A DNA stretch of 64,000 bases from Mobula birostris (Eukaryota): positions 13,578,001 to 13,642,000 of the forward strand of contig NC_092400.1 of NCBI RefSeq assembly GCF_030028105.1, written 5' to 3'. Each line of letters starts with the position of its first letter. Position 1 is the first letter of the stretch. Below the pieces are notes generated by a model. The model saw only the letters and a program-made list of their open reading frames with translations, did not search any database and had not been told where the DNA came from. A program made the position numbers and the translations under genes. Positions 1 to 25,100 of this stretch are shown piece by piece.

Positions 1-835
1 ACAGGAGAGAGATGCATCAGCTAGTTGAGTGGTGTCACAGCAACAACCTTGCACTCAATGGCAGGAACACGAAAGAACGGAGAGCGGTCTTCAGAAAGGG
101 TAAGATCAGAGAACACCCAACACCCCTCATAGAGAGACCAGAAGTGGAAAGAGTGAGCAAATCCAAGATTCTGAGCATCAAGGTCTCTGAGGACACAACC
201 TAGACCAAACATATCAATGCAGCTATAAAGGAGGCAAGACAGCGGCTATATTTCATTAGAGTTTGAGGAGATTTGCTATGTCACCAAAGACATTTGCAGA
301 TCTTTTACAGATGTGCCGTGGAGAGTATTCTAACTGGTTGCATCCCCGTCTGGTATGGGGAGGGGGGGTGGTGTGCTCCTGCACAGGATCCAAGCAAGCT
401 GCAGAAAGTTGTAAAATTAGTCAACTCCATCATGGGCACTAACCTCCATGGTATCCAGGACATCTTCAAGCAGTGATGCCTCAAAAAGGTGGCGACCATC
501 AGTTAGGATCCCCATCACCCAGAACATGCCCTCTTCTCATTGTTACCTTCAGGGAAGAGATATAGGAGCCTGAAGGCACACAGCCAATGATCCAGGGACA
601 GCATCTTCCCCGCTGTCATCCAATTTCTGAATGGACATTGAACCCATGAATACTTCACCACTTTTTTTATTTCTATTATTTTTGCACTACTTATTTGACT
701 TAACATACAAATGTTTGTATTTTCATATTGTAATTCAGTTTTTTTTCTCTATTATTACATATTTCTTTGTACTGATGCCGCAAAGTTAACAAATTTCATG
801 ACGTAAGCTGGTAGAATTAAACCCGATTCTGATTC
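1..835 (+). mobile_element. Rex/Babar-like LINE 3' fragment
   Basis: [19 protein letters not shown] motif and gattctgattc tail. Its distal part is copied into the tandem units. Confidence 0.8.
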
Positions 836-883
836 ATTAACAGTTTTGACTTCAAGTCCTTTTGTACCTAGATTTGATCTTAC

Positions 884-1057
884 CTGATGCCAATATGCTT
901 TATTGTCTTTGTCTGCCAGTGGAATTTCTGCCAGGTTTTCTTCTATCCATTTCAGATTAGTCTCGATGTAATTCTTAAGCTTGTCACAGTAGGCTGTCTG
1001 ACATTTGAAGGATCCACAGCAGTGAAATAATGTATTCATCCAGTGCACGTAAATATA
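884..1057 (-). CDS. PLBD2: PLBD2 exon 3, copy A (58 codons, phase 0/0)
   Basis: cag|TAT...CAG|gtaag. YIYVHWMNTLFHCCGSFKCQTAYCDKLKNYIETNLKWIEE...AYWHQ resembles PLBD2 LIYMHWMNT..YCGPF...YWHQ. Confidence 0.88.
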
Positions 1058-4000
1058 CTGGAAAACATAATAATTAAAATGTTACAAGAAAATCTGTTTT
1101 AAATTGTGATCAATCATTACTGAACTGGGCAGCAAAATATAACCAAGTCCTGTTTACCCACTTTGATACACGTTGACTTAAATTGACTCAGCAACACCTC
1201 TTCTTTACAATTCTGAACCTTATTTTCAAACTCCACATAGTTGCCAGTAGAAAGGACAGACAGTGGCGTTGGAATCACCGGGTTCAGGAACAGGTATTAC
1301 CTCTCAACCATCAGAATCTTGAACCAGAGGGGATAACTTCACTTGCCTCATCACTGAACTGTTCCCACAACCTATGGACTCACTTTCAAGGACTCTTCAT
1401 CTCGTGTTGTCAATACTCATTGCTTATATTTATTACACTTTTTCCTTTTTGCAGTTGCAGTGTGTTGCCTTTTGCACGCTAGTTGCCTGCCCTGTTGTTG
1501 TGATCCTTCAGTGATTCCATTATGGCTATTGGATTTATTGAGCATGCCCACAAGAAAATAAATCTCAGGGTTATACATGCACTTTGATAATAAATTTACT
1601 TTGAACTTGAAATTTGAACTTTGAATCTCATTCTCGCAGTAACTTTCTCCGAGTCCCCAAATTGCAGAACTCTGCACGTTCTGGCTGCTCAACCACCCCA
1701 GCTGCTATGGGCAAGCCTCCCAACTTCCTTCGCCTCATGCCCACAGTTACTTCGCATCTACGTGGAGGGCCTGTCTCACCGGCACTTTGCATCCCCACGG
1801 CCAACACTTTGCTTTCAATGTCAGTGGGAGCCTCAGGTGAGAAAACCTCCAAAACATCCGATAGTCTTTCAAAGCCAGCAAAGCCGGGTGGGTCTTTGCT
1901 GGCGGTAAACATTAAACTAGGTTTTAAAAGCTTTCAATATCTAACTTTTAGAGACATTTACAAACTAACAAAACAAAACTAAAACTGGAAAATAAGACTC
2001 ATTTGAACTAAATCTTAAGCATAAGACCACAAGATACAGGAGCAGAATTAGACACTCGGCCCATTGAGTCTACTCCACCATTTGATCATGGCCGATTTAT
2101 TATCCCTCTAAACCCCATTCTCCTGCCTTCCCCTTGCAACCTTTGACACCCTTACTAATTAAGAACCTGTCAACTTCCACTTTAAATATACTCAATGACG
2201 TGGCCTCCACAGCCTCTGTGGCTGTGATTCACCACCATCTGGGTAAAGAAATTCCTCCTCATCCTTTTTCTAAAGAGGTGTTCTTGTATTCTGAGGACGA
2301 GCTCATAGGGCCACCTCACAACCCTCTTCAAAATCAATGATCTGCTGATCATTTCTACCCAGGCATGCTCACACCACCTGATAGCTACTGACATCTATCT
2401 CCTCAGATCCTATTTCCACATGCTGACTTCCACCCATCTACCTAGATTGTTGCCTAGTCCTCTCATCAAGAACAGAACTTCCTCTGTGATCTCCACTCCT
2501 ACCACACACAACGCCTAGAGCTGAGCATTTCTGGTCAGATGTTAAGTGTATCTGTACTCGGCACAATGACAATAAAGGTTGAGGGGTAGTAACTCGGCAC
2601 AATGACAATAAAGTTGAATCTAACCTGATATCCAAGCTGAGTTCGGCATACTAAGTATTTTGCATTGACAATGTTACTGACCTTTGCATGGACATTAATT
2701 GAAAATTAAAAGTATTATTCAGATGACTCTAAAAATGCCAAAGTACAATTCAAAGAAAAACAGAGATTACAATCAATACATTCCTTACCAGAGATTACAA
2801 TCAATTTCACAACACTTATGCGGAGCATGGTAATTTCAATGCTACATTTGTCTATGTACCAAGTAAGCACAGTGCAAAGGCACAATGCCTACATATTTGC
2901 AGAAATTGATTAATTTGTTTTGTGTGTGGAACTGCATCACAGCCTGGTATGGAAACACCAAAGCCTGAGTGGAAAATCATACAAAAGGAAATGGATTTTC
3001 CCAGTATACCATTGAGCACACCTACATGAAACACTGTTGTAAAAAAACAGCATCCATCAAAGATCCTCTCCACCTAGACCATGCTTTTTTTTCCTCACTG
3101 CAGCCATCACAAGAGCCTCGGGACTCGCACTACCAGGTTCAAAAAACAGTTACTACCCCTCAACCTTAAGGCTCTTGCACAAAAGAGGATAACTACACTC
3201 GTCCATTGAGATGTTTCCACAACCAATGGTCTCACTTTAACAACTCTTTATCTTGTTATTTCATGCTCTCATTATTTAAAACGCTATTTATTTATACTTG
3301 CATTTGCACAGTTTGTTGTCTTCTATGCTATTGCATTGATCCTGTTTCCAGCTACTATTCCATAGATTTGTTGAGTATGCATGCAGAAAAAGAATCTCTG
3401 GGTGGCATGTGGTGACATGTATGTACTCTGATAATAAATTTTACTTGGAACATTGAACTCTGATGATTCACCACTCTGCTTAGAAATTTCTCATTTCAAT
3501 ACTAAATGGCACCATATTTTGAGATTGTGATTTTCTAGTTCTGGAATCCCTAACTGGGAAATTACTCCACTCTAAGTATTTTTAATGTCCGAATGAGATC
3601 ACCATTCATTCTTCTCATCTCCAGAAAATAGAGGGCCAAGCTTATTCATTAAATACAGCCATACAGACCATAAATTAAATACAGCCATACAGACCAAGCT
3701 GCAGAAAGTTGTAAAATTAGTCAACTCCATCATGGGCACTAACCTCCATGGTATCCAGGACATCTTCAAGCAGTGATGCCTCAAAAAGGTGGCGACCATC
3801 AGTTAGGATCCCCATCACCCAGAACATGCCCTCTTCTCATTGTTACCTTCAGGGAAGAGATATAGGAGCCTGAAGGCACACAGCCAATGATCCAGGGACA
3901 GCATCTTCCCCGCTGTCATCCAATTTCTGAATGGACATTGAACCCATGAATACTTCACCACTTTTTTATTTCTATTATTTTTGCACTACTTATTTGACTT

Positions 4001-4182
4001 AACATACAAATGTTTGTATTTTCATATTGTAATTCAGTTTTTTTTCTCTATTATTACATATTTCTTTGTACTGATGCCGCAAAGTTAACAAATTTCATGA
4101 CGTAAGCTGGTAGAATTAAACCCGATTCTGATTCATTAACAGTTTTGACTTCAAGTCCTTTTGTACCTAGATTTGATCTTAC

Positions 4183-4356
4183 CTGATGCCAATATGCTTT
4201 ATTGTCTTTGTCTGCCAGTGGAATTTCTGCCAGGTTTTCTTCTATCCATTTCAGATTAGTCTCGATGTAATTCTTAAGCTTGTCACAGTAGGCTGTCTGA
4301 CATTTGAAGGATCCACAGCAGTGAAATAATGTATTCATCCAGTGCACGTAAATATA
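4183..4356 (-). CDS. PLBD2: PLBD2 exon 3, copy B
   Basis: Identical to copy A with intact splice sites. Confidence 0.85.
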
Positions 4357-7300
4357 CTGGAAAACATAATAATTAAAATGTTACAAGAAAATCTGTTTTA
4401 AATTGTGATCAATCATTACTGAACTGGGCAGCAAAATATAACCAAGTCCTGTTTACCCACTTTGATACACGTTGACTTAAATTGACTCAGCAACACCTCT
4501 TCTTTACAATTCTGAACCTTATTTTCAAACTCCACATAGTTGCCAGTAGAAAGGACAGACAGTGGCGTTGGAATCACCGGGTTCAGGAACAGGTATTACC
4601 TCTCAACCATCAGAATCTTGAACCAGAGGGGATAACTTCACTTGCCTCATCACTGAACTGTTCCCACAACCTATGGACTCACTTTCAAGGACTCTTCATC
4701 TCGTGTTGTCAATACTCATTGCTTATATTTATTACACTTTTTCCTTTTTGCAGTTGCAGTGTGTTGCCTTTTGCACGCTAGTTGCCTGCCCTGTTGTTGT
4801 GATCCTTCAGTGATTCCATTATGGCTATTGGATTTATTGAGCATGCCCACAAGAAAATAAATCTCAGGGTTATACATGCACTTTGATAATAAATTTACTT
4901 TGAACTTGAAATTTGAACTTTGAATCTCATTCTCGCAGTAACTTTCTCCGAGTCCCCAAATTGCAGAACTCTGCACGTTCTGGCTGCTCAACCACCCCAG
5001 CTGCTATGGGCAAGCCTCCCAACTTCCTTCGCCTCATGCCCACAGTTACTTCGCATCTACGTGGAGGGCCTGTCTCACCGGCACTTTGCATCCCCACGGC
5101 CAACACTTTGCTTTCAATGTCAGTGGGAGCCTCAGGTGAGAAAACCTCCAAAACATCCGATAGTCTTTCAAAGCCAGCAAAGCCGGGTGGGTCTTTGCTG
5201 GCGGTAAACATTAAACTAGGTTTTAAAAGCTTTCAATATCTAACTTTTAGAGACATTTACAAACTAACAAAACAAAACTAAAACTGGAAAATAAGACTCA
5301 TTTGAACTAAATCTTAAGCATAAGACCACAAGATACAGGAGCAGAATTAGACACTCGGCCCATTGAGTCTACTCCACCATTTGATCATGGCCGATTTATT
5401 ATCCCTCTAAACCCCATTCTCCTGCCTTCCCCTTGCAACCTTTGACACCCTTACTAATTAAGAACCTGTCAACTTCCACTTTAAATATACTCAATGACGT
5501 GGCCTCCACAGCCTCTGTGGCTGTGATTCACCACCATCTGGGTAAAGAAATTCCTCCTCATCCTTTTTCTAAAGAGGTGTTCTTGTATTCTGAGGACGAG
5601 CTCATAGGGCCACCTCACAACCCTCTTCAAAATCAATGATCTGCTGATCATTTCTACCCAGGCATGCTCACACCACCTGATAGCTACTGACATCTATCTC
5701 CTCAGATCCTATTTCCACATGCTGACTTCCACCCATCTACCTAGATTGTTGCCTAGTCCTCTCATCAAGAACAGAACTTCCTCTGTGATCTCCACTCCTA
5801 CCACACACAACGCCTAGAGCTGAGCATTTCTGGTCAGATGCTAAGTGTATCTGTACTCGGCACAATGACAATAAAGGTTGAGGGGTAGTAACTCGGCACA
5901 ATGACAATAAAGTTGAATCTAACCTGATATCCAAGCTGAGTTCGGCATACTAAGTATTTTGCATTGACAATGTTACTGACCTTTGCATGGACATTAATTG
6001 AAAATTAAAAGTATTATTCAGATGACTCTAAAAATGCCAAAGTACAATTCAAAGAAAAACAGAGATTACAATCAATACATTCCTTACCAGAGATTACAAT
6101 CAATTTCACAACACTTATGCGGAGCATGGTAATTTCAATGCTACATTTGTCTATGTACCAAGTAAGCACAGTGCAAAGGCACAATGCCTACATATTTGCA
6201 GAAATTGATTAATTTGTTTTGTGTGTGGAACTGCATCACAGCCTGGTATGGAAACACCAAAGCCTGAGTGGAAAATCATACAAAAGGAAATGGATTTTCC
6301 CAGTATACCATTGAGCACACCTACATGAAACACTGTTGTAAAAAAACAGCATCCATCAAAGATCCTCTCCACCTAGACCATGCTTTTTTTTCCTCACTGC
6401 AGCCATCACAAGAGCCTCGGGACTCGCACTACCAGGTTCAAAAAACAGTTACTACCCCTCAACCTTAAGGCTCTTGCACAAAAGAGGATAACTACACTCG
6501 TCCATTGAGATGTTTCCACAACCAATGGTCTCACTTTAACAACTCTTTATCTTGTTATTTCATGCTCTCATTATTTAAAACGCTATTTATTTATACTTGC
6601 ATTTGCACAGTTTGTTGTCTTCTATGCTATTGCATTGATCCTGTTTCCAGCTACTATTCCATAGATTTGTTGAGTATGCATGCAGAAAAAGAATCTCTGG
6701 GTGGCATGTGGTGACATGTATGTACTCTGATAATAAATTTTACTTGGAACATTGAACTCTGATGATTCACCACTCTGCTTAGAAATTTCTCATTTCAATA
6801 CTAAATGGCACCATATTTTGAGATTGTGATTTTCTAGTTCTGGAATCCCTAACTGGGAAATTACTCCACTCTAAGTATTTTTAATGTCCGAATGAGATCA
6901 CCATTCATTCTTCTCATCTCCAGAAAATAGAGGGCCAAGCTTATTCATTAAATACAGCCATACAGACCATAAATTAAATACAGCCATACAGACCAAGCTG
7001 CAGAAAGTTGTAAAATTAGTCAACTCCATCATGGGCACTAACCTCCATGGTATCCAGGACATCTTCAAGCAGTGATGCCTCAAAAAGGTGGCGACCATCA
7101 GTTAGGATCCCCATCACCCAGAACATGCCCTCTTCTCATTGTTACCTTCAGGGAAGAGATATAGGAGCCTGAAGGCACACAGCCAATGATCCAGGGACAG
7201 CATCTTCCCCGCTGTCATCCAATTTCTGAATGGACATTGAACCCATGAATACTTCACCACTTTTTTTATTTCTATTATTTTTGCACTACTTATTTGACTT

Positions 7301-7482
7301 AACATACAAATGTTTGTATTTTCATATTGTAATTCAGTTTTTTTTCTCTATTATTACATATTTCTTTGTACTGATGCCGCAAAGTTAACAAATTTCATGA
7401 CGTAAGCTGGTAGAATTAAACCCGATTCTGATTCATTAACAGTTTTGACTTCAAGTCCTTTTGTACCTAGATTTGATCTTAC

Positions 7483-7656
7483 CTGATGCCAATATGCTTT
7501 ATTGTCTTTGTCTGCCAGTGGAATTTCTGCCAGGTTTTCTTCTATCCATTTCAGATTAGTCTCGATGTAATTCTTAAGCTTGTCACAGTAGGCTGTCTGA
7601 CATTTGAAGGATCCACAGCAGTGAAATAATGTATTCATCCAGTGCACGTAAATATA
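7483..7656 (-). CDS. PLBD2: PLBD2 exon 3, copy C
   Basis: Identical to copy A with intact splice sites. Confidence 0.85.
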
Positions 7657-10600
7657 CTGGAAAACATAATAATTAAAATGTTACAAGAAAATCTGTTTTA
7701 AATTGTGATCAATCATTACTGAACTGGGCAGCAAAATATAACCAAGTCCTGTTTACCCACTTTGATACACGTTGACTTAAATTGACTCAGCAACACCTCT
7801 TCTTTACAATTCTGAACCTTATTTTCAAACTCCACATAGTTGCCAGTAGAAAGGACAGACAGTGGCGTTGGAATCACCGGGTTCAGGAACAGGTATTACC
7901 TCTCAACCATCAGAATCTTGAACCAGAGGGGATAACTTCACTTGCCTCATCACTGAACTGTTCCCACAACCTATGGACTCACTTTCAAGGACTCTTCATC
8001 TCGTGTTGTCAATACTCATTGCTTATATTTATTACACTTTTTCCTTTTTGCAGTTGCAGTGTGTTGCCTTTTGCACGCTAGTTGCCTGCCCTGTTGTTGT
8101 GATCCTTCAGTGATTCCATTATGGCTATTGGATTTATTGAGCATGCCCACAAGAAAATAAATCTCAGGGTTATACATGCACTTTGATAATAAATTTACTT
8201 TGAACTTGAAATTTGAACTTTGAATCTCATTCTCGCAGTAACTTTCTCCGAGTCCCCAAATTGCAGAACTCTGCACGTTCTGGCTGCTCAACCACCCCAG
8301 CTGCTATGGGCAAGCCTCCCAACTTCCTTCGCCTCATGCCCACAGTTACTTCGCATCTACGTGGAGGGCCTGTCTCACCGGCACTTTGCATCCCCACGGC
8401 CAACACTTTGCTTTCAATGTCAGTGGGAGCCTCAGGTGAGAAAACCTCCAAAACATCCGATAGTCTTTCAAAGCCAGCAAAGCCGGGTGGGTCTTTGCTG
8501 GCGGTAAACATTAAACTAGGTTTTAAAAGCTTTCAATATCTAACTTTTAGAGACATTTACAAACTAACAAAACAAAACTAAAACTGGAAAATAAGACTCA
8601 TTTGAACTAAATCTTAAGCATAAGACCACAAGATACAGGAGCAGAATTAGACACTCGGCCCATTGAGTCTACTCCACCATTTGATCATGGCCGATTTATT
8701 ATCCCTCTAAACCCCATTCTCCTGCCTTCCCCTTGCAACCTTTGACACCCTTACTAATTAAGAACCTGTCAACTTCCACTTTAAATATACTCAATGACGT
8801 GGCCTCCACAGCCTCTGTGGCTGTGATTCACCACCATCTGGGTAAAGAAATTCCTCCTCATCCTTTTTCTAAAGAGGTGTTCTTGTATTCTGAGGACGAG
8901 CTCATAGGGCCACCTCACAACCCTCTTCAAAATCAATGATCTGCTGATCATTTCTACCCAGGCATGCTCACACCACCTGATAGCTACTGACATCTATCTC
9001 CTCAGATCCTATTTCCACATGCTGACTTCCACCCATCTACCTAGATTGTTGCCTAGTCCTCTCAGCAAGAACAGAACTTCCTCTGTGATCTCCACTCCTA
9101 CCACACACAACGCCTAGAGCTGAGCATTTCTGGTCAGATGTTAAGTGTATCTGTACTCGGCACAATGACAATAAAGGTTGAGGGGTAGTAACTCGGCACA
9201 ATGACAATAAAGTTGAATCTAACCTGATATCCAAGCTGAGTTCGGCATACTAAGTATTTTGCATTGACAATGTTACTGACCTTTGCATGGACATTAATTG
9301 AAAATTAAAAGTATTATTCAGATGACTCTAAAAATGCCAAAGTACAATTCAAAGAAAAACAGAGATTACAATCAATACATTCCTTACCAGAGATTACAAT
9401 CAATTTCACAACACTTATGCGGAGCATGGTAATTTCAATGCTACATTTGTCTATGTACCAAGTAAGCACAGTGCAAAGGCACAATGCCTACATATTTGCA
9501 GAAATTGATTAATTTGTTTTGTGTGTGGAACTGCATCACAGCCTGGTATGGAAACACCAAAGCCTGAGTGGAAAATCATACAAAAGGAAATGGATTTTCC
9601 CAGTATACCATTGAGCACACCTACATGAAACACTGTTGTAAAAAAACAGCATCCATCAAAGATCCTCTCCACCTAGACCATGCTTTTTTTTCCTCACTGC
9701 AGCCATCACAAGAGCCTCGGGACTCGCACTACCAGGTTCAAAAAACAGTTACTACCCCTCAACCTTAAGGCTCTTGCACAAAAGAGGATAACTACACTCG
9801 TCCATTGAGATGTTTCCACAACCAATGGTCTCACTTTAACAACTCTTTATCTTGTTATTTCATGCTCTCATTATTTAAAACGCTATTTATTTATACTTGC
9901 ATTTGCACAGTTTGTTGTCTTCTATGCTATTGCATTGATCCTGTTTCCAGCTACTATTCCATAGATTTGTTGAGTATGCATGCAGAAAAAGAATCTCTGG
10001 GTGGCATGTGGTGACATGTATGTACTCTGATAATAAATTTTACTTGGAACATTGAACTCTGATGATTCACCACTCTGCTTAGAAATTTCTCATTTCAATA
10101 CTAAATGGCACCATATTTTGAGATTGTGATTTTCTAGTTCTGGAATCCCTAACTGGGAAATTACTCCACTCTAAGTATTTTTAATGTCCGAATGAGATCA
10201 CCATTCATTCTTCTCATCTCCAGAAAATAGAGGGCCAAGCTTATTCATTAAATACAGCCATACAGACCATAAATTTTAAGCTTCCTGGCCTTTTGATCTC
10301 CCTGCTTTGGTCAGCTCTGGCTCACAAACATCAAATGCTTATTTGGTATTAACCATCCAAGTAGAAAGTCAATGTGTTTGGGACAGGTGTCAGGGTCAGA
10401 TTTAGTTTCAATACATCACACTGCAGGATAATCTAATAGTCTAATTTATAAAGAACTGTTAAAGAGTAAAGGCAGGGAGATCTTTCAGAACAAAAGTGAC
10501 ATGCAGAGTCATTTGGAGAAAAAAGTTTGCATTGGTTATAGCAGTCCATTGGTATTAAGTTGCCAAACAAAATGTCTGATTTACTTACATTTAAAATGAA

Positions 10601-10804: not shown

Positions 10805-10898
10805 TGGTCGTGTGACCTCAGCTTCCAGCACTCCTGCAGCATAAGCCTGAATTCTATCATCATACGTCCCATTTGTACCAAGTTCAAGGTAGGACCAG
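10805..10898 (-). CDS. PLBD2: PLBD2 exon 2 (94 nt)
   Basis: tgtag|C TGG...CCA|gtaagc. WSYLELGTNGTYDDRIQAYAAGVLEAEVTRP resembles PLBD2 WAFLELGTSGQYNDSLQAYAAGVVEAAVSEE. Confidence 0.92.
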
Positions 10899-11289: not shown

Positions 11290-11905
11290 CCACTCATTCC
11301 CTACCCACCTCCCCTGCCCCCAAGGCCCACCCCCACCTCCCCGCCCCCAACACCCACCCCACCTCCCCTGCTCCCGACACCCGCCCCCACCCCCGACACC
11401 CACCCCATCTCCCCTGCCCCCAACGCCCACCCCACCTCCCCTGCCCCCGAGCGCCCACCCCCACCCCACCTCCCCTGCCCCCCAGCGCCCACCTGCCAAA
11501 CTGCCACCCACCACGCCGCCTGCCCTACCCACCCATCACCCACGCTGCCTACCCTACCCCAACAAGCAACCACTCCCCTCCCCACCCCACAGGCGTCCAC
11601 CCCCACTCCGTGTGCCCTGTCCTACTCTCCACGGGCGCCCACCTCCCACCCTGAACCCCCCCCAACCACGCCTGCCCTCCCGAGCGCCCCCCCCCCACCA
11701 GGGCCCACCCCCACCCCCGGGCATCCATCCACCACCCCAACTCCTCTGGCCTCGACACCCAACCGCACCCACCTCCCCCTCCTCTATCCCCAAACCCACC
11801 CCTCACCCCCATCTACTCCTCGTGACCCTACCGGTACCCGCAGCCTACTTGTTCCACACTCTTCTTACCAACCTACCTGCCCTACCCACCTACCACCCCA
11901 CCTTC
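11290..11905. repeat. C-rich low-complexity tract (G-rich on the PLBD2 sense strand)
   Basis: Repeated cacccc/cacctcccctgcccc-like units. Confidence 0.9.
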
Positions 11906-11911
11906 CTTTCT

Positions 11912-12058
11912 GCCAGAGCGGTGCAGCGTCTCAGGAGCCGCCAGAGGCACCACTGCCAGCAGCGACAACAACAACAGGACATGACAAGCAGCCACTCAGC
12001 AGGAGGACCGGTATTGGATGTGGCACCGAGGTCCCTCAGGGCAGCAAGCCACCGCCAT
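11912..12058 (-). pseudogene. PLBD2: PLBD2 exon 1 remnant (signal peptide interrupted by an in-frame TGA)
   Basis: AACATGGCG start at 12058 reads MAVACCPEGPRCHIQYRSSC*, then VAACHVLLLLSLLAVVPLAAPETLHRS in the same frame. The expected AVAWANxTN..G segment and a clear phase-2 donor were not found. Confidence 0.6.
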
Positions 12059-12470
12059 GTTGGACCGGCGCATCAGCTGACGCCGGTGAATGATTGACAG
12101 CCTGGTGCGCTGGCGACCGAGCGAAAGTCCGGCTCCTCACTATATTTGCCAGATGCTAGTCATTTGCATATCTGTATCGTCACGTGAATGTATATGATCA
12201 TTTGCTTGAGCTTTCATGGAGCGTTATAGCAGCATATGGAATATTTCGAGTAAGTCACGCAATTCTATTCGGGGATAGTGCCGAGTCTCATTGATTGGAG
12301 GTCCGTGAAATGACCTTTCATTCAAAGCGCGTCTGCTTCAATGCGTGATGGTTTCACGTTGGACCGAGTCGCAGCTGGGAGCAAAAACTGAGCCAGTGCG
12401 GCTCTCGCTGTCTTCTTGAACCCCCGCGCATTAATTGGAATGAACTGATTTAAATAGGGGGAGGGCGAGG
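12052..12470. promoter_or_regulatory. Putative bidirectional PLBD2/SLC8B1 promoter
   Basis: CpG-richer region between divergent ATGs (12058 on -, 12935 on +). YY1-like CCGCCATGTT at 12052, octamer ATTTGCAT at 12162-12169, GTCACGTGAA at 12179-12188. A candidate 5'UTR donor GTAAGT at 12250 pairs with the acceptor ttttag at 12920. Confidence 0.6.
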
Positions 12471-12934
12471 AAGTAATGAGTTGGACTGAGAGGTTATTAG
12501 TGTTTTTTTCTGGGGGGAGTGTGAAGTGGGTTGGTCGGCCAGTACTCCTGTTACCTTTCAAGAAGGAGGAAATAACATTACGTATGGAGAACAATTTGCT
12601 AAGGGGATACATTCTGATTTACTTGATGTAGAAATGTGAACCTGGAAGTTTAAATTTCTCCTTTACTTTTAGTTATTGTATTTACTTCCTGGTTTAAGTA
12701 CTGGGGTTTCAGACTGGAGCTATAGCATGGTTTTATTTTTTTAAGTCGTTTGAGCAAATTGAATATGTCAGCTGTTTCTACATTCGCGATAGATAGGTTC
12801 CCTGAGTTTATTTATGTCATGATAGGGAGAGTTTCTTGGGCGACTTCCTAATCTTCTGGCTAATTAACGCAGAGCGGTAACCGCAAACTGAAAGAGTGCT
12901 GATTCGAGTTCTTCTTTTAGACTGACCCACGGCA

Positions 12935-13132
12935 ATGAAGGCAGGCTGTGTTACTGTGATCGCCTGGCTTCTCTGGCTGAGGACTGCGAAGTGTTACGCA
13001 CCCCAGTCCCTGGGGACTCCCGATTCACATCGCTTTAAAAACGTTGCTGGAATAATTGAGCCCCGTTCGTCTGAAAATACTGTTAACACAAGCTCTCTTG
13101 GTCTGCTTGAAGCGACTAGTTGGTCAATTGAG
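12935..13132 (+). CDS. SLC8B1: SLC8B1 coding exon 1
   Basis: GCAATGA start. MKAGCVTVIAWLLWLRTAKC...SWSIE|gtacgt, phase 0, matches the next exon. Confidence 0.72.
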
Positions 13133-16100
13133 GTACGTCTTCTCTGTCTTGACCTAAATGTAATCTTGGGTACCCTGAAGTCTGTCTTTTAAATTTTATC
13201 TCTCTGCACTATTCTTTAATGGATTAATTTCGTGAGTTAGTAGGCAGCTTAATGTTTCCCCATCACTAGCTTGCATTTTCTCCATTCTGATTTTCATCAC
13301 CTAATTGAAGTTGGAAATGAGTTTTGATTTCTTACAAGCAATCGTGTAATTTTTTTTTAATATCCTCCCCTGTTAATGTAAGGAGCAGCCGTTTCCTCTG
13401 GTGTTGCTGGGTATGGTAGTGCTCTTCCCAAATTGGAAAAGATCACGAGGCTGTCACTTCAGCGAAGCAGTGAGGGTGTGCTTTTATAAAATGTCCCTTG
13501 AGTGGAGGCATTGAAAGTGCTATTTGCAGAGTGTGGGGAAGGGGGTGTCCTGCTCAATGCCCCCCACTACCCAGGCCATGCTCTCTTCTGCTTCTGACAT
13601 CTGGAAGGAGGTACAGGAGCCTTTGGTCCCAAACCGCCAGGTTCTGTAATGGTTATTACCCCCAACTATCAGGCTCCTGAACCAGCACGGAAAATTTCAT
13701 TCACCTCAACCCTGAACTGATTCCACAACTAATGGACTCGCGTTCAAGGACTCTACAACTCTTGTCCCAGGTATTATTTAATTTTAATATATGCAGCTTG
13801 TTTTCTTGTGCACATACAGGTACTGAGTCTAATGTATTCTACTGTGAATACCTGCAAGAAGATGAATCTCTGGGTGCCATATCTGTGAACTTTGAACTTT
13901 ATGCTAGTCAGCATTTCCGTCTTTCCATGTTAACTTTGTGGGAGTAGAGGATTTAATCTAATATTGGGGGTAAGGTGAATAATTTAGCCTAAAGCACTGA
14001 TTAAACTTTGTTTTCTTAATCCTCACAATTAGTAACCAGGTCAATTATTGGCACTAATTGAACTATTAAACCATTTTATCTAAAGCCAGTGGTGGGCAGA
14101 CAGCAGTATACCACTAATGTTCACAAAGATTTGAATTTTGTAAGCATCCTGGTTGAATACTGTCAAAACACTCTTCTCTTGGTCGTGATTTTTGCGCCAC
14201 TCTTTGCAGATGTCCTAGACTGTTCAGTTCTTGATGACCATAAATATTCCAAGCTCCACTGTTTAGTGAGTCAAACTATAAACAAGTTGATTTCCTCTTG
14301 AAGTAATGAGATAACTTGTTAGGCCTGGTTCTGTAAAAGTGTTTTTAGCTGCTTGTTATCTGTCTACAAAAAAAAAGTTTGCCAGTTACTAAGCAGCAGC
14401 CTCATTCCAGTAATATTCCTTCATTAATGAGCAGCATATTAAAACAAAAAGTCCTTCTGTAACCACACCCCTTGGCTGGCTGAACTTTGCAGCTGTGTTA
14501 TGTTACTTTGCTCTGGTTGTACAGAGGGTAGTGCTGCTGGTTCACAGCTCCAGCGACTTTGGTTTGACCCTGAGCTTAGTGCTGTGTATTTTCTCCAAGT
14601 TCTCCCCATTCCCCTCACCTCCTTAAAAACTTGTATGGTTAATTAGCTACTGTAATCATTGGATTTGGGTTGGAGTTGATTGGCATTTATATCAAATTAA
14701 TTAGCGTGCTGGTTTCCTAGTTTAAGCAATCTGATTAACGTGTAGGCAGCTGGCTATATTAATTATGCTAAAGTAAGGAATGTCAAAACTAAATTGCATG
14801 GCATCCCAAAGTATCAGCAGGAAAGTTTTTTTTCCCCTTGCAAGTTTTAGTACTTCAATATCTGCTAGGAGTTATCCAAAATTTATGTACAGCGTATTTT
14901 TTAAAATCTTAATTGGTATCATTTCTATTAGAGTCTTGATCTGAATGTCCCGTTTAGTTAAAAATGACCATTTTGTTGCATTTTTCTTAGCCTCTGGACA
15001 TTGACTGAAAACTATTTTCAATGAAGTGAAGTCTGGCAGTCAACTTTCACACAGCAAAGTCCCTCAGACTGGACTAAACCTGAACAGGATATATCAGCTG
15101 GTTGAAGACCACCCAATGCTTCTCACCTCTTTGAATGTTGTTTCATCTCCTGGATATGGGGGGACCTCATAGAAACATTTCAAATGTTGAAAGGCATGGA
15201 CAGAGTAGATGTGGCAAAGTTGTTTCCCATGATGGGGGAGTCTAGTACGAGAGGGTATGACTTAAGGATTGAAGGGCGCCCAGTCAGAACAGAAATGCGA
15301 AGAAATTTTTTTAGTCAGAGGGTGGTGAATCTATGGAATTTGTTGCCACGGGCAGCAGTGGAGGCCAAGTCATTGGGTGTATTTAAGGCAGAGATTGATA
15401 GGTATCTGAGTAGCCAGGGCATCAAAGGTTATGGTGAGAAGGCAGGGGAGTGGGACTAAATGGGAGAATGGATCAGCTCATGATAAAATGGCGGAGCAGA
15501 CTCGATGGGCCAAATGGTTGACTTCTGCTCCTTGGTCTTATGGTTTTATGGTCTTATGAATGTGAAAATTCACCTTCATCCCCCGATTGCTGCACAGTAG
15601 TGACTTGCTGAAAGTACTTGGAGTGAAAATTCTCACTGGTGCAGGAATATGATAATAAAATGGATGCATTTTGAGCAAACTTAAATTTGACCAGAACACA
15701 TGTTATGCGTCATCTTTAAGGAGTTCAGCAAACTCTCTTGTCTTGCTCTTTGGGGAGGCAGAAAAACAAATCCAAACTCAAATCCTGTTGTCTGAGCACA
15801 ATGATTTGTAAAGTGGAGACTTTCAATATGGACAATATTTAACTTAAACGTATATAAGAGTTGCTAACTTCTCTCTGATATTGTTAAGATGCCCCTATCT
15901 TTTTAGCAACATGGTCGGCAGTCAAAGTTGACAGCAACGATGCATACATCAAGATGTTCAGCATTTAACCCATCGTATAGATATTATTGCAAAGAAAGCA
16001 TGACCATGCCTCTATTTCCTCAGGAGTCTGGGGAGGTTTGGCACGTCAGCAAAAAAGCTTGGTGAACTTCTATAGATGTGAGGTGGAAAGTGTGCTGACT

Positions 16101-19100
16101 GGCTGCATTATGGCCTGCTATGGGAACACCGATGCTTTTGAGTGGAAAATCCTACAAATGGTAGTGGATTTGGACCAGTATCTCACGGCTTAAACCCTCC
16201 CAACCATTGAGTGCATCTACATGAAACATTGCCAAAGAAAAGCAGCATCCATCATCAAAGATCCTCACCACCCAGACCATGCGGTGGTGCCATCAGAGGG
16301 TACAGGTGCCTCAGGACTGGCAGTGCCAGGTTCAAGAACGGTTACTACCCCTCAACCATTAGGCTCTTGAACAAAAAGGGATAACTACATGTTATTTCAT
16401 GCTCATTATTTATTGCTATTAATTTATATCTGCATTTGCAGCTTGTTTATAGTTCCTGATGTTTACAGTTGAGTTACTGTTCTATAGATTTGTTAAGTGT
16501 GCCCACAGAAAAAGAATCTCAGGGTTGTATGTGATGACATGCATGTACTCTGAAAATAAATTTTACTGTGAGCTTTGAACATTTAGAAAGCATTGAGCAA
16601 TAGAATGAATGTTTTTAAGAATATAATGTTGAATAGAACTGAAGCTGCTAACTTATTTGCTGTCTTTTCTAGTGTCATAATGTAGTGCAGCTGAATGGGT
16701 CCCAGTGGTGTTCATTTGTAAAAACTACTGAAGACTGCAAAATTGGAAGTGGCTTTATTGACTACCTCAAAGGCGCTGTTTGTGGGTTTTACCATAATCT
16801 GCTACCGCTGGCTATCATTCTTTATGTAAGTATTGGCTATTTTGATTAAACGGATTAAATATGAAAATCTTTGTTAAAATATGGAAGTCCCAAATGTGTT
16901 AAATGTTCTTGGCTATCAGTTTTCTGCCTATGCTTTAATTTCTGTTTTTGGTTTCTATTTGCATAAAGTCCAGGGACAAACTCCAAACCTGACAAATTCC
17001 TCCTGCACATGTACTAGTAATCTGCTTTCTGGTTGGGCCTGGAGCATTTACAATTGAGTATTGTTGAATGGAGAGAAGTGGCTGTGGGTTCTAAGGTGCT
17101 CGTTGAAGTTTAACTTTTAAGCCTTTCCTTCTTTCGTTCTTTAATTTTGAAAGTACACATCAATGTACTGTAGTCATAGCCTGATCTTCAGACGGAAGTT
17201 TTGGGAGGAGGGAGCTATTCCCTGTGAAAGGCATCCGTTAGTCTTGCGAGACCATGGATCTGCGCCTGGAAAGTCTTCACTCTCCAGGGCGTAGGCCTGG
17301 GCAAGATTGTATGGAAGACCAGCAGTTGCCCATGCTGCAAGTCTCCCCTCTCCACGACACCAATGTTGTCCAAGGGAAGGGCATCAGGACCCATACAGCC
17401 TGGCACCAGTGTCGTCGCAGAGCAATGTGTGATTAAGTGCCTTGCTCAAGGACACAGCACGTTCCCTCGGCTGGGGCTCGAACTCATGACCTTCAGGTCG
17501 CTAGTCCAATGCCTTAACCACTTGGCCACGTGCTGAATTTTAAAAAAGAAGAAAAAAATGCAGTTTCCATCAATAGGTGTACCATTGCTGTGTGTCACCT
17601 CAACTACCTTTCAGTCCCCCAATCTGAACTTGAGCCTTGAGAACATAAATAACGTGCCTCATGTCTACCCCTCGAACTCACCTTAAACTTGTACCCTCCA
17701 GCATTTGATTGGACGTCATCATAGAGGAGGATGAGCTCGGACTATCTCGTTGATGCCTTTCATAATTTTGTAATCTTCTACCAGGCTTTCAATGCTGCAA
17801 CAAAAAAGGAATCCGAGTTTGTCTAACTTGTAATTGATACAGCCCAATCCATCTGATATACTGGTGAACCTCTTCTGCACCCTTTCCAAAGCCTTTACAT
17901 CCTCCTTGTAATGTAGAAACCAGAGCTGCACACATGGCTTGACTAAAGTTTTAAAGAGCCGCAATGTGAGTCCTTTTGTTACCACCCTATCCACTTGTTG
18001 CCACCTTCAGGGAGTTATAGATGTGCACCCCAAGATTATTCTGTATACCAGTGCTCTGATGGATCCTATCTTGTCCTGTATACATTCCTGTTGCATTTGA
18101 CCTCCAAAATGCATTGCATTACTCTTGTCTACAGTAAACTCCGCCTGCCATTTCTTTGCCCAAATTTCCAACTGGTCAATATCCTGGTATATCCTTTGGC
18201 ACCTTCGTCAACACACAGTTTCTTGTCACGTTGCTGATCAGACCACTTGCATTTTTCATCTAACCGAGAGGTACCAATCCTTGTGGAACACCTCAGGGGT
18301 CCCTTTACAGAGGGATGGCGGGGAGAGGGTGGAGTCCTCTGTCACTGCACTGTCTATTCAGTGTTGAGCAGATTTTGGATTCCGTTTCCTAACTTGTGGA
18401 TCCACCCCATCTTGATGAATACTGCCATAAAGTATTCTTTAAGGATATCACCCACCTTCACTAGTTCCAAACACAAATTCTCTCCTTTGACATTGAATAG
18501 ACACATTCTTTCCCCAGATTTGCTCCCAGTATGTTTAAAATGCCTTGGGGTTCTCTTTGAACCTCCTTGCCAAGAATATTTCATGGTCCCAATCAGCTCT
18601 CATAATTCTTGGTATAATTTCTTTCCTGCTTCTATATTCCTCAAGTGCCTTGTCTGATGTTTAGGTTCAACATAAGCCTTCTAAATGCTTCCTTTTTCTT
18701 TTTGCTGGAACTTGCAATATATCTTTTCATCCAATGTTCTCAAACCTTATCAGTCTACCCTTCATCCTCCCAGAATAAGCTGGTCCTGAACTCTGGCAAC
18801 TAGCTTTTAAAGGACTCCCAAATGTTGGAGGTACTTTTACTCTAAAAAGGCCGCTCCCAATCTATTTCTCCACTTCCTGCCCGATATTATAATAATACTC
18901 CCTCCACTCACCCACCACCAGTTTAGCACTTTCGCCAGAAGACTGGACTTATCCTTCAAAAAACTATCTTCAAAATGTTTTTGAAGTTGTGCTCTCTGAA
19001 CAGAAATCTCTCCCACTGAACATCCAATCATCTGGCCAGAGATTTCCCAGTACAAAGACAAGTATGGCTTCTTCCCTGATTGAACTAATGAAATATTGTT

Positions 19101-22100
19101 TCAGAAACAGTTGTGATATAGCCTAAATTCTGAGCCGGCTAAGCCCCCGATACAAAGGGAGGCCCAATTAATATCAGGATAATTAAAATCCCTCATTACG
19201 CTAACATTGTTGGTTTTAAATCTTTTCACGAACTGCCTGCATGCATATTTGCTCCTCGGGCTTTTGGGAGACCTTCAGTATAATCCCTTCACTGTGATTG
19301 CACTTTTTTAAAATTCCTGGCGTCTACCCATGTGTTCTTGCTGGATGAGCCCTGCACTGCATCTTTTCTCATTGCAACTGTAGCATTCTCCCTAATCAAT
19401 GACACAACTCAGCTATCATATCTGCATCTACTCTACTCTAAAATATTGAGCTGCTAATTCTGCCCTTCCCTCAATCTTTTTATCTGTAATACCCAGAACA
19501 TGTGCTAAACCAGACTCCATTCTCATCTGCTTTTTCTAAATAAGGACACTTTAGATTGTCATTCCCAAAGTTTTCCTTGACTTGCCTCTTGTCTGCTCTT
19601 CCTAGTAGACTTGACCTAACCTCTACCTCCCCCTCAATCCTTCCACTTGGTGATTCACAGCCTGGTTCCGACCCAGCTCTACGCCAGTTTAAACCCTCCC
19701 AAGTACCACTAGCAAAGCTCACTGCAACAATGTTGATGCCCCTCCAGTTTGGGTGCAGAGTGTGCTTGAACAAGTCATCTCCTTGCCTTGGAATGAATCC
19801 CAATGATCCAGGTATCCGAAGCACTCCTTGCATTTTCTTATTTCTGCCCTTGCTAGCAGCAATCTTTTCAAAATACAGTATTTAAAAGCTGTATCTTTAA
19901 TCCACTTTGCTATGGGTTTTGTGCTCTCCTTGCTGCTTTCTCCCCCTAATTTGAGCTCCAATAACTCTTGGCTAATTGTACTCAGTTTCTTTTTAAGGCC
20001 TCAACTGTTAATTTGTATTGTACAGAAAATGCTGGAGGAACTCAGCAGGTCAGGCAGCATCTATGGAATGAACAGCAAGTTGATTTATTTCAGGCTGAGA
20101 CTCCTCTTCAGTCCTGATGAAAGGCCTTTGAAAGGTCGACTGTTTACTCTTGCCATAGATGCTGCCTGACCTGCTGAGTTCCTCCAGCATTTTGTATGTG
20201 TGGCTTTGGTTTCCAGCATCTGCAGAACTTCTTGTGTTTATGATCTGTATTGTGTTCGTGGGCATTGCCCCTTAATCAGTAAATTGAATTATGAACAGAT
20301 ATTTCTTGGATTGATACAGTAGTTCACACTTTCTAAAAATGGCTGCCTAACCTTAATCTCATCTTGTGAAGATTATTTTCAATGATCACACATGGTTTAG
20401 ATGCATGCTGCGTGAAAAATAGCAGATCAGTCGTTACTGTGAGTCTTAATGCACAAATTTGTGATGTTCAGAAATATCCCAATAGTGAATTTATCAGTTA
20501 ATACGGCTGTTTAATGTACAATTATCATGAACTGATCTTGCTGTTGATTATGTGATTTGCTGTGTACAATCACTTGTAGCTGTGTGGGTTTGCAAGATTT
20601 ACATTAGAACCTTGTCGGTTCGATTTAGAGTGGCATAGAAACTATTTAAACCACTTCTGCTTCCTTTTCACATTGTGTTATCGTCAATGCACTCTTCTCA
20701 TAACCTATTTTAGAGAAGTATTAAACCAATTTTTCTTGGCTTTGTACTAGTGCCAGTGAACAAAATACATGGGTTGTAAAATAGGCTAAAATGCGGCTGA
20801 TGGTATTAATTTGTTCTGGGCTATGGATTTGAATTTCTACTAATGTTTGATATCAAATTGTAAGACATTTAAATGAAGGCACTGAATGAAGCACTCTACT
20901 GATTAACATCATTTATACTTTACACAGGCTGTTTGGTTGTTCTACCTATTCATGTTCCTTGGAATAACAGCTGAAAAATTGTAAGTTTTGTCTTTCGGCA
21001 TTTAATCTTGAATCTTTCACTGACACTTGCCTACTAAGTTCTCAAAGTAACTGTCAGTTTTGTGCTCTATATTATTGAAATTGATTCTGAATTGTGTCTT
21101 TAGTGGTGTTCACGCTTCATTTTCTGGTAAAACTTTACTTTCCCATCCCTTTTAAAAATAAAGATGCAAATGTAGCATAGTTGAAGACAATTAACTGAAG
21201 TGAGGTATCAGAAGCTACTTGGACTTCAAAGTAGAGATGTCCCTCCAGCCCAAAGCAAGTTACCACTGCACAGTATTTCCAGGCTCCAGCATATGAAGGA
21301 CAAAGTTCTTTATGTTAGAAAAAGGTACTTGCCCTGTGTTCTGAAACTTGTGGCAGTGAGTTGTTAGCCAATTATTCTAGATTTTGGTGAGATTGCAATC
21401 CATTTCCTTCACAATGCGTTTGTCTGTTCTGCAGCCCCAAATGCTAAAGTGATTGAAGTAAAGGGGGAGCTGAATATTTCTGCTGACGCACTCTGTCTCT
21501 CCCTGACCTTCAGCAATAAAGTGATAAAATGTGTAATCATACCATTCTGTATTTGGCATTTTCATCAGTCTTTCTGTGCTCTCCAAATATTCTGATTATA
21601 AATAAATTGAAAGTTGTTTTTCTTGGAATATTCTTGAAGTTAAATCCAGAGTGACTGGCACCATAACTTTTCTGTAGTTAGTTGGCACATAACAGCAAGT
21701 GCTATTTAATGAAAGTATAGATTCTCCCATTTTCCCATACACTAGCAATTTTTCAATGTTATGATCATAAATATCAAGTCTAATTATTTTGCTTCTCCAG
21801 CTTTTGTCCAAACCTGGCTGCCATATCTACAAGTTTAAAGTTGTCACATAATGTGGCAGTATCCTTTATGCCTTGAATATATTTAATGAGTGATAATTGG
21901 TTGTATTGGGTGAGCGCAATCTTTGAATGGCATGTTAAGCTAGAACTAATTTTTGTGTTCTAGCTGGTAATGTTGTCACACCTACACATCTAGATATTTG
22001 CATTTGTATAAAGGAAACAACCTGACAGAATGAATGGTCTCAAAATAGAGTTTATATTTGGGGTTCAAAATATCAATATTACCTGGTTCTTGGCTCAGAT

Positions 22101-25100
22101 TTGATTTGAGGTTTTTGCTGTTTTTTTTTAAATTGTTCTTTCACTGGAGCAGCGTAGGGTTGACAGAAGTACATTGTTCAATACTGCTTTGCACTTGAGG
22201 AAGGATATGTGCTTCCATCTTGAATTTCAGTCTGTGGCAAATGTTTTCAAGAATAATGTTGGGGAGGAAGTTCTAGGGTCAAAGAAACTTTTGAGCTCGT
22301 GTGTGACTTGGGCAGATGTTTAATAGTGTCTTTTTGTTCTTTTGGTTGGTTAAGTTGAGTTTGCCAATTGTTCTGCATGTTTTAGATGCTGCACTAGAGT
22401 AATTATTTAGGGTTGTATTGTCAGCTTTGTTACAGCAATTTCCATGTTTTCTAGGCAGGTTTCAAGAAATCCATTGCACTCCCAGTTGGTCTTTGTGACG
22501 GGTGCGAAGGCTTGGGTATTATACTTTCTCTGAAGAATATGCACTTCTGGCTGTGATTGCCATTTTGAAATCAGAATCAGGTTTATTATCACCCACATGT
22601 GTCGTGAAATTTATTAACTTAGCAGCAGCAGTTCAATGCACTACATAATATCGAAGACAAAAAAATAAATCAATTTACAGTATACAGTATATATATCGAA
22701 TAGATTAAAATCTTGCAGCAAAACAGAAATAATATGTATTATAAAAAATGACCTAGTGTCCAAAGATTCAATGTCCATTCAGGAATCGATGGCAGAGGGG
22801 AAGAAGCTGTTCCTGAATCGCTGTGTGTGTGCCTTCAGGCTTCTGTACCGCCTTCGTGATGGTAACAGTGAGAAAAGGGCATGCCCTGGGTGCTGAAGGT
22901 CCTTGATAATGGACGCTGCCTTTCTGAGACACTGCTCCCTAAGGATGTCCTGGGTACTTTGTAGGCTAGTACCCAAGATGGAGCTGACTAAATTTACAAT
23001 CCTCTGCAGCTTCTTTCAGCCCATGCAGTAGTTAACCCCCCCTCTTTTTGTCTTACTGATGTTGGGTGCCAGGTTGTTGCTGCAACACCACTCCACTGGT
23101 TGGCATATCTTGTCTGTGACTGAGCGGTCTGTGGATTGGTGATAACATATCCTTTTCCCTGACGATCAACACTGGCGCACCTCGGGTGTGTGCTTAGCCC
23201 ACTGCTCTACTCTCTGTATACACATGACTGTGTGGCTATGCATAGCTCAAACACCATCTATATATTTGCTGATGATACAATCATTGTTGATAGAATCTCA
23301 GGTGGTGATGAGAGGGCATACAGGAGTGAGATATGCCAACTAGTGGATTGGTGCTACAGCAACAACCTGGCACTCAGCATCAGTAAGATTAAAGAGCTGG
23401 TTGTGGACTTCAGGAAGGGTAAGACAAAGGAACACATACCAATCCTCATAGGGGAATCAGGAAGTAGAGAGAGTGAGCAGCTTCAAGTTCCTGGGTGTCA
23501 AGATCTCTGAGGATCTAACCTGGTCCCAACACATTGATGTAGTCATAAAGAAGGCAAGACAGTGGCTATACTTTATTAGGAGTTTGAAGTGATTTGGCAT
23601 GTCAACAAACACACTCAAACTTCTATAGTTGTACAGTGGAGAGCATTCTGACAGGCTGCATCACTGTCTGGTATGGAGGGGCTACTGCACAGGACCAAAA
23701 GAAGCTGCAGAAGGTTGTGAATCTAGTCAGCTCCATCTTGAGCACTAGCCTACAAAGTACCCAGGACATCTTCAGGGAGCGGTGTCTCAGAAAGGTAGCA
23801 TCCATTATTAAGGATCTCCCGCACCCAGGGCATGCCCTTTTCTCACTGTTACCATCAGGAAGGAGATATAGAAGCCTGAAGGCACACACTCAGCGATTCA
23901 GGAACAGCTTCTTCCCCTCTGCCATCGATTCCTGAATGGACATTGAAGCTTTGGACACTACCTCACTTTTTTTTTTAATATACAGTATTTATTTTTGCAC
24001 ATTTTAAAATAATCTATTCAATAAATGTAATTGATTTACTTTTATTTTATTTATTATTATTTTTATTTCTCTCTGCTAGATTATGTATTGCATTGAACTG
24101 CTGCTGCTAAGTTAACAAATTTCACATCACATGCCCCTGATGATAAAATCTGATTCTGATCCGGTTAAGTTTCTGTTTAACTACTTTACTCCCACTCTGC
24201 CACACAACAGTCTCTTAAGATACGGGTTTCCTATTGAGTATCACAGGGTAGGTATTTAGATTATGAACTATCTTGCTCATGGTATGCACCACGTATCCAG
24301 TTTAGCCCTAATCTTGTAAGGGGGCATGAAATGATCCATCTGTCTGGAGTTGCAAATGTTGGCTATGTGAGCGGGAGAAGGGGCATTGTCATGAAGCTGA
24401 GATGACCGGCTTTCAAACACAAGCTCCCTTTGTGCAAGTCCAGCCAGGGGGAGGATGCTTCGCTCAGTTCCCAATGCCCTCATTCAAATATTTCCTTAAT
24501 CCTGAAGGTATTGAATTTCACATTGCTCAGTATTTTGTACCAAGCTAGCGATCTGAAATGGAGCTGGCCCTACCCAGAAGGCAGGTTTGAGAAGCATGTT
24601 AACATCAAAAGGTATTGGCACACGCCGAACCCTTCCAACAGAATTGTCACTTGTATTGGCCATATCCCCCGATTTATTTATTTATTTTTGGGGTGTACAG
24701 GAAAGGTATCAAATGCCATTGCTTCAGCTAAAATGGAACAACTTGGCTAAAGGCTTTAACCTTGCAGCAGGATGCTTTCCTGCCCAGTGATACAAGGCAT
24801 TTTATCAAAGTTAAAGTAAATTATTATTAGGTATGTACAGTATGTGTCACCATATACTACCTTGAGATTCATTTTCTTGCCAGCATTTACAGAAATGCCA
24901 TAGAATTTTTGAAAAACTAGACAAATAAACTGGTAAACTACCAACATGCAAAAGAAGACTTTTACACACTCTCTTTGCAGAAATGGTTAAGTGGAACATA
25001 TTTACCATGGGTGAGGAATTGAAAACTATTAAATTGCATGAAGTATGACATCCTCTTGATTATTTTGGCTCTTCTGCCTCCCCATTTTTTTTTTTTTTTT

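Follow-up and report, generated by a model that had tools for sequence, protein, structure and literature searches.

A probable young unitary pseudogene of PLBD2 in the manta ray Mobula birostris

Introduction

Does the manta ray Mobula birostris still possess a working PLBD2 gene, and, if not, by which mutations was it disabled? The question is raised by a 64,000-nucleotide stretch of its genome (hereafter the window; contig NC_092400.1, positions 13,578,001 to 13,642,000), in which the first exon of a PLBD2-like gene contains an in-frame stop codon and breaks off early, and the third exon is present in three copies. An earlier note on this DNA had proposed that part of exon 1 was deleted and re-inserted in inverted orientation, disabling the gene.

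PLBD2 (phospholipase B-like 2) belongs to Pfam family PF04916 and MEROPS family C95, is an Ntn-hydrolase, and is represented by the mouse structures 3FBX and 3FGR. One review describes it as a soluble lysosomal enzyme consisting of alpha and beta chains after processing, with Cys249 as the nucleophile in mouse; it also describes its activity as disputed (phospholipase versus amidase) and knockout mice as viable (PMC8053727). In a second review, PLBD2-deficient mice are said to have no lysosomal disease phenotype and the substrate is called enigmatic (PMC9140057), and a third publication reports no hydrolysis of BMP by the purified protein (PMC12158761). PLBD1, a paralogue with the same fold encoded by a different gene, is identified in portions of a preprint as LyLAP, a lysosomal leucine aminopeptidase, with the suggestion that PLBD2 could supply a baseline of like activity (bioRxiv 10.1101/2024.12.13.628212). 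A wild, long-lived vertebrate without PLBD2 would indicate that the gene is dispensable over evolutionary time, beyond caged mice, and would provide comparative material.

Results

Gene identification and synteny

The 5' end of the gene lies on the minus strand, beside an intact neighbour on the plus strand:

about 11915-12058, minus strand: PLBD2 exon 1
10805..10898, minus strand: PLBD2 exon 2, 94 nt, canonical AG/GT splice sites
7483..7656, minus strand: PLBD2 exon 3, first of three copies, 174 nt, phase 0-0
12935..43428, plus strand: SLC8B1 (NCLX), head-to-head with PLBD2, 15 exons, 597 aa

A protein search with exon 3 gave five matches among ten candidates, all of them PLBD2. One is the 144-aa "putative phospholipase B-like 2" that NCBI lists for Mobula birostris (P0001), to which exon 3 is 100% identical and all four pieces of which match the window exactly; the other four are full-length PLBD2 proteins from Hypanus, Pristis and two sharks. 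The PDB matches are mouse PLBD2 (3FGR_A, E=2e-13), and PF04916 is matched at E=1.8e-15, with P0001 spanning only positions 14-95 of 487. Exons 2 and 3 share 85-88% identity with Hypanus and Pristis PLBD2.

SLC8B1 was used as a control for orthology and for local base accuracy. Its coding sequence of 1794 nt carries a terminal stop only, with no internal stop, and its ATG is separated from that of PLBD2 by 877 bp. TPCN1 exons were located beyond it, and SLC8B1, TPCN1 and PLBD2 are likewise neighbours in one region in cattle (PMC6125589). The locus is thus nearer to PLBD2 than to PLBD1, carries the PF04916 domain and lies in the SLC8B1/TPCN1 neighbourhood. Judged by homology and gene order, it is the orthologous PLBD2 of the manta ray; the gene name given in the earlier note is borne out by the exon-3 identity, the PDB and Pfam matches and the conserved neighbours.

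A premature stop codon in colinear exon 1 sequence

The 5' part of exon 1 comprises the following features:

12056..12058, minus strand: orthologous PLBD2 start codon, strong context (A at -3, G at +4), aligned with Pristis Met1
12071-12073, minus strand: second in-frame ATG, upstream, which runs into the same TGA as the ATG at 12058
11999..12058, minus strand: codons 1-20, N-terminal region of the ancestral signal sequence, holding most of the supposed 51-bp insert
11996..11998, minus strand: premature TGA, codon 21 from the ATG at 12058, opposite Arg in Pristis and Gly in Hypanus
11915..11995, minus strand: remaining signal peptide with its hydrophobic core, then the mature chain from its start to ETLHRS, all downstream of the stop

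The TGA at 11996-11998 and the two copies of GTGGCT on the minus strand (12047-12052 and 11990-11995) are present as previously described. The 51 bp between the repeats had been taken for an inverted insert, the removal of 57 bp restoring a clean signal peptide. Protein comparison with sharks and rays contradicts this reading. Codons 1-20 align without gaps from Met1 with residues 1-20 of Pristis PLBD2 (P0003; 12/20 identical, E=1e-6), and the antisense reading of the 51 bp gives E=0.95. The stretch as far as ETLHRS aligns straight through the stop with both rays, identity being 60% over 50 positions in Hypanus and 57% over 51 in Pristis, and the signal-peptide core at 11915-11995 reaches a Kyte-Doolittle maximum of 3.31, against 2.65-3.02 in the two rays.

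The 51 bp were then compared with 1000 shuffled versions in six frames against ten orthologues, an eleventh (P0025) being without exon 1. For the sense reading, three comparisons reached significance (Pristis, p=0.001; Hypanus, p=0.004; the skate-like P0007, p=0.001), and those with the other seven, more distant, orthologues did not (p 0.10-0.96). The antisense reading stayed at chance level in 10/10 orthologues (p 0.40-0.96 against shuffled 51-mers) and never aligned to the missing exon-1 segment. Because the sense matches are significant and the antisense reading is at chance, the 51 bp are ordinary ancestral exon 1, colinear with the sense strand of Pristis and Hypanus PLBD2, and the peptide produced by removing 57 bp is found in no ray. 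The plus strand does read VLDVAPRSLRAA; its likeness to the segment that follows RS in orthologues is at chance level, with no alignment there. As a footprint of insertion, the GTGGCT pair needs nothing beyond chance: exon 1 contains 13 repeated hexamer pairs within its 144 bp, and among 2000 shuffles of the exon 96% contained at least one pair and 65% an in-frame pair. Since the supposedly inserted bases are present in orthologues and are not an antisense match of the deleted segment, the inverted-insertion mechanism is refuted at the protein level.

The simple reading of the TGA is a point nonsense change, one base away from Arg or Gly codons such as that inferred for the ancestor. Selenocysteine, readthrough and RNA editing of this codon were considered and rejected by reasoning: it aligns with Arg or Gly, and the deleted segment would not be restored. 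As a separate observation, the codon right after the stop (11993-11995, minus strand) reads GTG, in a place occupied by Met in Hypanus and by Pro in Pristis; if the PLBD2 of the stingray lineage could initiate at the Hypanus-type Met, the GTG would be one more lesion.

Deletion at the 3' end of exon 1

Three features mark the end of exon 1 and the intron behind it:

11914..11915, minus strand: deletion junction, with about 100 coding nt (34 codons, Hypanus 55-88) and the native phase-2 donor gone
11882..11914, minus strand: G-rich intron-like sequence adjoining exon 1, cryptic donors after 11894 and 11886
11304..11559, no strand assigned: tandem tract of low complexity and G/C skew within intron 1, at 300-600 bp from the junction

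In orthologues, exon 1 ends only after coding for 34 further residues beyond the Ser codon at 11915-11917. This segment includes columns conserved in 107-118 of 120 proteins and is present in 118/120 listed orthologues (107/109 of the named ones), the two exceptions being the alternative isoform models P0009 and P0025. A profile of the segment found nothing in the six frames of the window (best E=0.49), with four intact orthologues scoring 50-67 bits as a control, and neither this search nor tblastn detected the segment relocated within the window. The earlier observation that the sequence following ETLHRS is missing therefore stands. P0009 (Heterodontus) and P0025 (Rhinoraja) are predicted NCBI PLBD2 isoform models that have other first exons and are without the signal-peptide region.

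In mouse PLBD2, the match to the lost segment falls in the 28-kDa alpha chain (3FGR/3FBX). In a predicted model of Pristis PLBD2 (34-row alignment, mean pLDDT 69.9, pLDDT 76-94 in the lost block), the lost residues 52-85 correspond to strands E47-54 (in part), E61-65 and E73-80 plus a short helix; the lost segment is thereby shown, at the level of a model, as ordered beta-strands of the alpha subunit. The PLBD2 of the window does not encode a complete alpha chain including the first beta-strands, and the sequence adjoining the junction runs into an in-frame TAG (11882-11884) after 11 codons. Aligned with its orthologues, the TGA alters a single codon within ancestral sequence; the deletion, about 80 bp downstream of it, is a distinct lesion. 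One alignment suggests an in-frame microhomology deletion of 21 bp, with 'GR...VV' left over from the lost segment, but this is not supported, since 256-306 of 672 windows of the G-rich tract score as high.

Substitutions in exons 2 and 3

Exons 2 and 3 retain canonical splice sites and open frames. Exon 3 carries a Tyr-to-Cys change at 7618-7620, in a column that is invariant in 120/120 listed orthologues, and two more of its residues (7600-7602 and 7645-7647) are found in none of the 120. Across the two exons, only 3/120 listed orthologues break an otherwise invariant column, and the window departs at one of the 7 such columns.

No excess of amino-acid change was detected in exons 2-3: counts of changes unique to the window and to Hypanus were 3:7, 3:4 and 3:4 with three outgroups, none of them significant, and private residues numbered 3 in the window versus 4 in the intact Hypanus protein. 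Faster protein evolution that would prove decay was accordingly not found, there being no rate excess over Hypanus in 89 residues. The decay may be recent, or not visible in a stretch of this length, and appears slight overall.

Tandem triplication of exon 3

The two further copies of exon 3 and the repeat structure that contains them are as follows:

4183..4356, minus strand: second copy of exon 3, with no difference from copy 1 and its splice sites preserved
884..1057, minus strand: third copy of exon 3, likewise with no difference from copy 1 and its splice sites preserved
395..10275, no strand assigned: three tandem 3.28-kb units (6994-10275, 3695-6975 and 395-3676)
6976..6993, minus strand: insert of 18 nt at the junction, templated by 10250-10267 and bounded by microhomologies of 2 nt and 3 nt
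3677..3694, minus strand: the same 18-nt insert at the second junction, an identical scar

The units differ in all by 2 substitutions, which are intronic, and 1 homopolymer indel. The Tyr-to-Cys change is present in each of the three exon-3 copies, which do not differ from one another; the coding damage therefore preceded the triplication. Exon 3 is frame-neutral, so that triplication alone adds at most 116 residues and no frameshift.

The template of the junction insert lies 8 nt inside the unit. A short templated insert with microhomologies is the scar of end joining (polymerase-theta) or of template-switch repair. The first duplication would thus have arisen through one of these pathways with a locally templated insert, and the third copy through unequal crossing-over, because both junctions are identical. 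The case has in common with known tandem duplications carrying templated insertions the short insert taken from a few bases inside the junction and the microhomologies of 2-3 nt; it differs in that the manta pathway is read from the scar alone and in that the third copy repeats the junction, which points to a later unequal exchange. The 18-nt templated insert is not something that an assembler would invent; the exact copy number is provisional. Dating the triplication from the 2 substitutions with the epaulette-shark rate gave about 0.3 million generations, an estimate that was set aside as too wide (95% range 0.035-1.05 million) and sensitive to homogenisation.

Predicted splicing and the annotated NCBI model

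Two features are specific to the NCBI model:

11980..11982, minus strand: out-of-frame ATG, start of the 144-aa model, in a frame without the hydrophobic core
7148..7225, minus strand: cryptic terminal exon of the model, within an antisense LINE fragment in intron 3

Exon 2 requires an upstream phase-2 donor. Among the 18 GT sites between 11930 and 11780, only the donor after 11886 keeps the native frame, and in combination with the GTG behind the stop as the start codon it yields a frame with a signal peptide that is open through exon 3. The NCBI model uses the donor after 11894, which is frameshifting for the native frame. The N-terminus of that model has a Kyte-Doolittle maximum of 0.82, compared with 2.65-3.31 for the native frame and the two rays, and the model contains neither a signal peptide nor the catalytic Cys; that residue opens the beta chain at Hypanus residue 240, and the model ends well before it. 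No ATG-initiated signal peptide is in frame with the mature chain, owing to the TGA at codon 21. This comparison shows NCBI's 144-aa 'PLBD2' to be a mis-framed remnant, not a protein.

Translation from the strong ATG would bring ribosomes to a stop after 20 residues. Splicing would have to use cryptic GT sites of the G-rich intron, the site chosen in the NCBI model being one that shifts the frame, and the annotated product, being out of frame, without a signal peptide and ended by LINE sequence before the catalytic Cys, would give no lysosomal enzyme. Among 1.84 billion representative sequences, no useful transcript-derived protein was found that would reveal how exons 1 and 2 are really joined.

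The promoter region is CpG-rich (observed/expected 1.0-1.15 at 12100-12500) and is common to PLBD2 and the intact SLC8B1; through it, the 5' end of PLBD2 may stay transcribed. Given this CpG content and the 877 bp between the ATGs, the gene could plausibly still be transcribed as a by-product of SLC8B1. Separately, the interval 10899-10972 (minus strand) contains an intronic ATG in frame with exon 2 and, behind it, a hydrophobic stretch that is probably just the pyrimidine tract read as codons.

Discussion

Loss of PLBD2 through separate mutations

Taken together, the evidence indicates that the PLBD2 gene at this locus is a young unitary pseudogene, produced by several separate ordinary mutations and very probably dead in this genome; we place the probability of this reading at roughly 0.8. 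The lesions are a nonsense codon at position 21 inside the ancestral signal-peptide sequence, the removal of some 34 codons from the 3' end of exon 1 together with its splice donor, the Tyr-to-Cys change at an invariant exon-3 position and, later, the tandem triplication of exon 3. Disablement of the gene, already suspected in the earlier note, is supported by the stop, the exon-1 deletion and the loss of the invariant Tyr, and loss of function plausibly explains why the exon triplication is tolerated. At least four lesions on one haplotype point to a long absence of purifying selection and hence probably, with one haplotype examined, to fixation rather than a rare null allele.

Set against functional PLBD2, the window gene has a stop at codon 21, a deletion of 34 codons, a replaced invariant Tyr and a tripled exon 3. 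Intact one-to-one orthologues are found in Hypanus (583 aa), Pristis (579 aa) and sharks (563-574 aa). The window covers PLBD2 exons 1-3; exons 4 onward, which would hold the Cys-Ser nucleophile at the alpha/beta junction and the beta chain, lie beyond its position 1. No protein named Mobula occurred in the best 120 of 1750 near-full-length matches or in the best 120 of 494 short C-terminal matches; both negatives are weak, as the score of a C-terminal model with roughly 400 aa could fall close to the cut-off of the near-full-length list and, with searches run on 90% identity clusters, an intact Mobula protein could hide in the 5-member Hypanus cluster.

Among the competing explanations, the one that survives best, though unlikely, is that the damage is confined to this haplotype or this species, as a null allele that is private or segregating, or is partly an assembly error, for instance in the deletion or the copy number. 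In its favour, the deletion sits next to a low-complexity tract with strong skew, the repeat units share 99.9% identity, one haplotype was covered, and exons 2-3 show no acceleration. On the other side, four kinds of lesion coincide on that haplotype, the repeat copies differ at 3 sites, and simple over-expansion of a repeat does not create a templated 18-nt junction insert. SLC8B1 is moreover free of errors, and parts of a preprint describe the NCBI-annotated manta assembly (there "M. yarae") as a HiFi haplotype with a reported QV61 (10.64898/2026.10.27.761883).

It is very improbable that the gene still makes a working or repurposed protein, initiated at the GTG after the stop or at the intronic ATG at 10972 and spliced through the frame-keeping donor. 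Such a product is conceivable in that the GTG at 11995 with the donor at 11886 opens a frame through exon 3 and the intronic ATG, itself in frame, precedes a hydrophobic stretch before exon 2. Against this, the context of the GTG is weak, and two in-frame ATGs and a stop precede it; both products would be without three core beta-strands and would carry the Tyr change and up to 2 extra exon-3 copies; and the NCBI model takes another donor and ends in a LINE. With this frame, the search of 1.84 billion representatives mentioned above gave 1 match, a 1999-aa protein, covering the hydrophobic stretch only.

The chance that an intact PLBD2 resides elsewhere in the genome and that this locus is a decaying duplicate is equally slight. 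Many duplications in mobulid genomes are described in portions of the manta preprint (10.64898/2026.10.27.761883), and clustering can hide a close intact protein; yet the locus retains SLC8B1 and TPCN1 as neighbours, which also lie near PLBD2 in cattle according to a passage of PMC6125589, and the exon-3 search gave only the 144-aa model for Mobula (5 matches among 10 candidates). The weakest proposal, that part of exon 1 was excised and re-inserted in reverse between the GTGGCT copies, bringing the TGA with it, retains practically no probability: the hexamer pair and a superficially similar antisense peptide do exist, against a sense match from Met1 (E=1e-6), shuffle p=0.001-0.004 in 3/10 orthologues, an antisense reading at chance in 10/10 (E=0.95) and hexamer repeats that are expected by chance.

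Stepwise pseudogenisation is an ordinary kind of event, and the PLBD2 case is apparently unreported. No report of PLBD2 loss in rays was found in the literature searched, which lacked most subscription papers, and the main text of the manta genome preprint has 0 mentions of PLBD2 (10.64898/2026.10.27.761883). As in other unitary pseudogenes, a conserved single-copy gene would have been disabled in place and sister lineages keep intact orthologues. Among cartilaginous fish, noggin1 and shortwave opsin are reportedly examples of loss as unitary pseudogenes. In comparison with such losses, that of manta PLBD2 appears young and narrow, the gene being intact in Hypanus, Pristis and sharks, and has no known phenotype or ecological link. 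By analogy with PLBD2-null mice, which are viable, the loss was plausibly tolerated, and redundancy with PLBD1 would have contributed to this.

Constraint in the stingray lineage

In a tree of 12 proteins the branch of Hypanus (H. sabinus, P0002) measures 0.12 and that of Pristis 0.021, a ratio of about six. Relative-rate counts for Hypanus:Pristis were significant with two shark outgroups (33:11, p=0.001; 31:14, p=0.016) and not with a chimaera outgroup (23:16, p=0.34). A Pro shared by 117/120 listed orthologues is Ser in both Hypanus and the window. The long Hypanus branch may mean that constraint relaxed ahead of the loss, or simply that stingrays evolve faster in general. More tentatively, and as a possibility that we consider doubtful, PLBD2, which extends from protists to mammals, could have been lost in the ancestor of manta and devil rays when constraint had already relaxed in the stingray lineage. 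If this were true, mobulids would be a natural vertebrate knockout, and comparison of their lysosomal contents with those of stingrays could point to the substrate.

Additional observations in the window

SLC8B1, for which we take SLC24A6 to be the former name, contains two U12-type (minor-spliceosome) introns, at 21859-26622 and 41491-41571 on the plus strand. In the first, a GTATCCTT donor and a U12-like branch point are combined with a non-canonical AT acceptor (GT-AT). A GT-AT U12 intron of SLC24A6 is described as conserved between human and mouse (PMC1557818); if it is the same intron, these odd ends have been kept back to cartilaginous fish.

Downstream of SLC8B1, a 91-bp segment is repeated at 100% identity about 700 bp apart (45853-45943 and 46548-46638). 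A TPCN1 intron holds a decayed LTR retrotransposon at 54396-60235, with two 320-bp terminal repeats that are 83% identical, matches to reverse transcriptase and integrase, and a LINE fragment nested at about 56778-57573; from its domain order we read this element as Gypsy-like.
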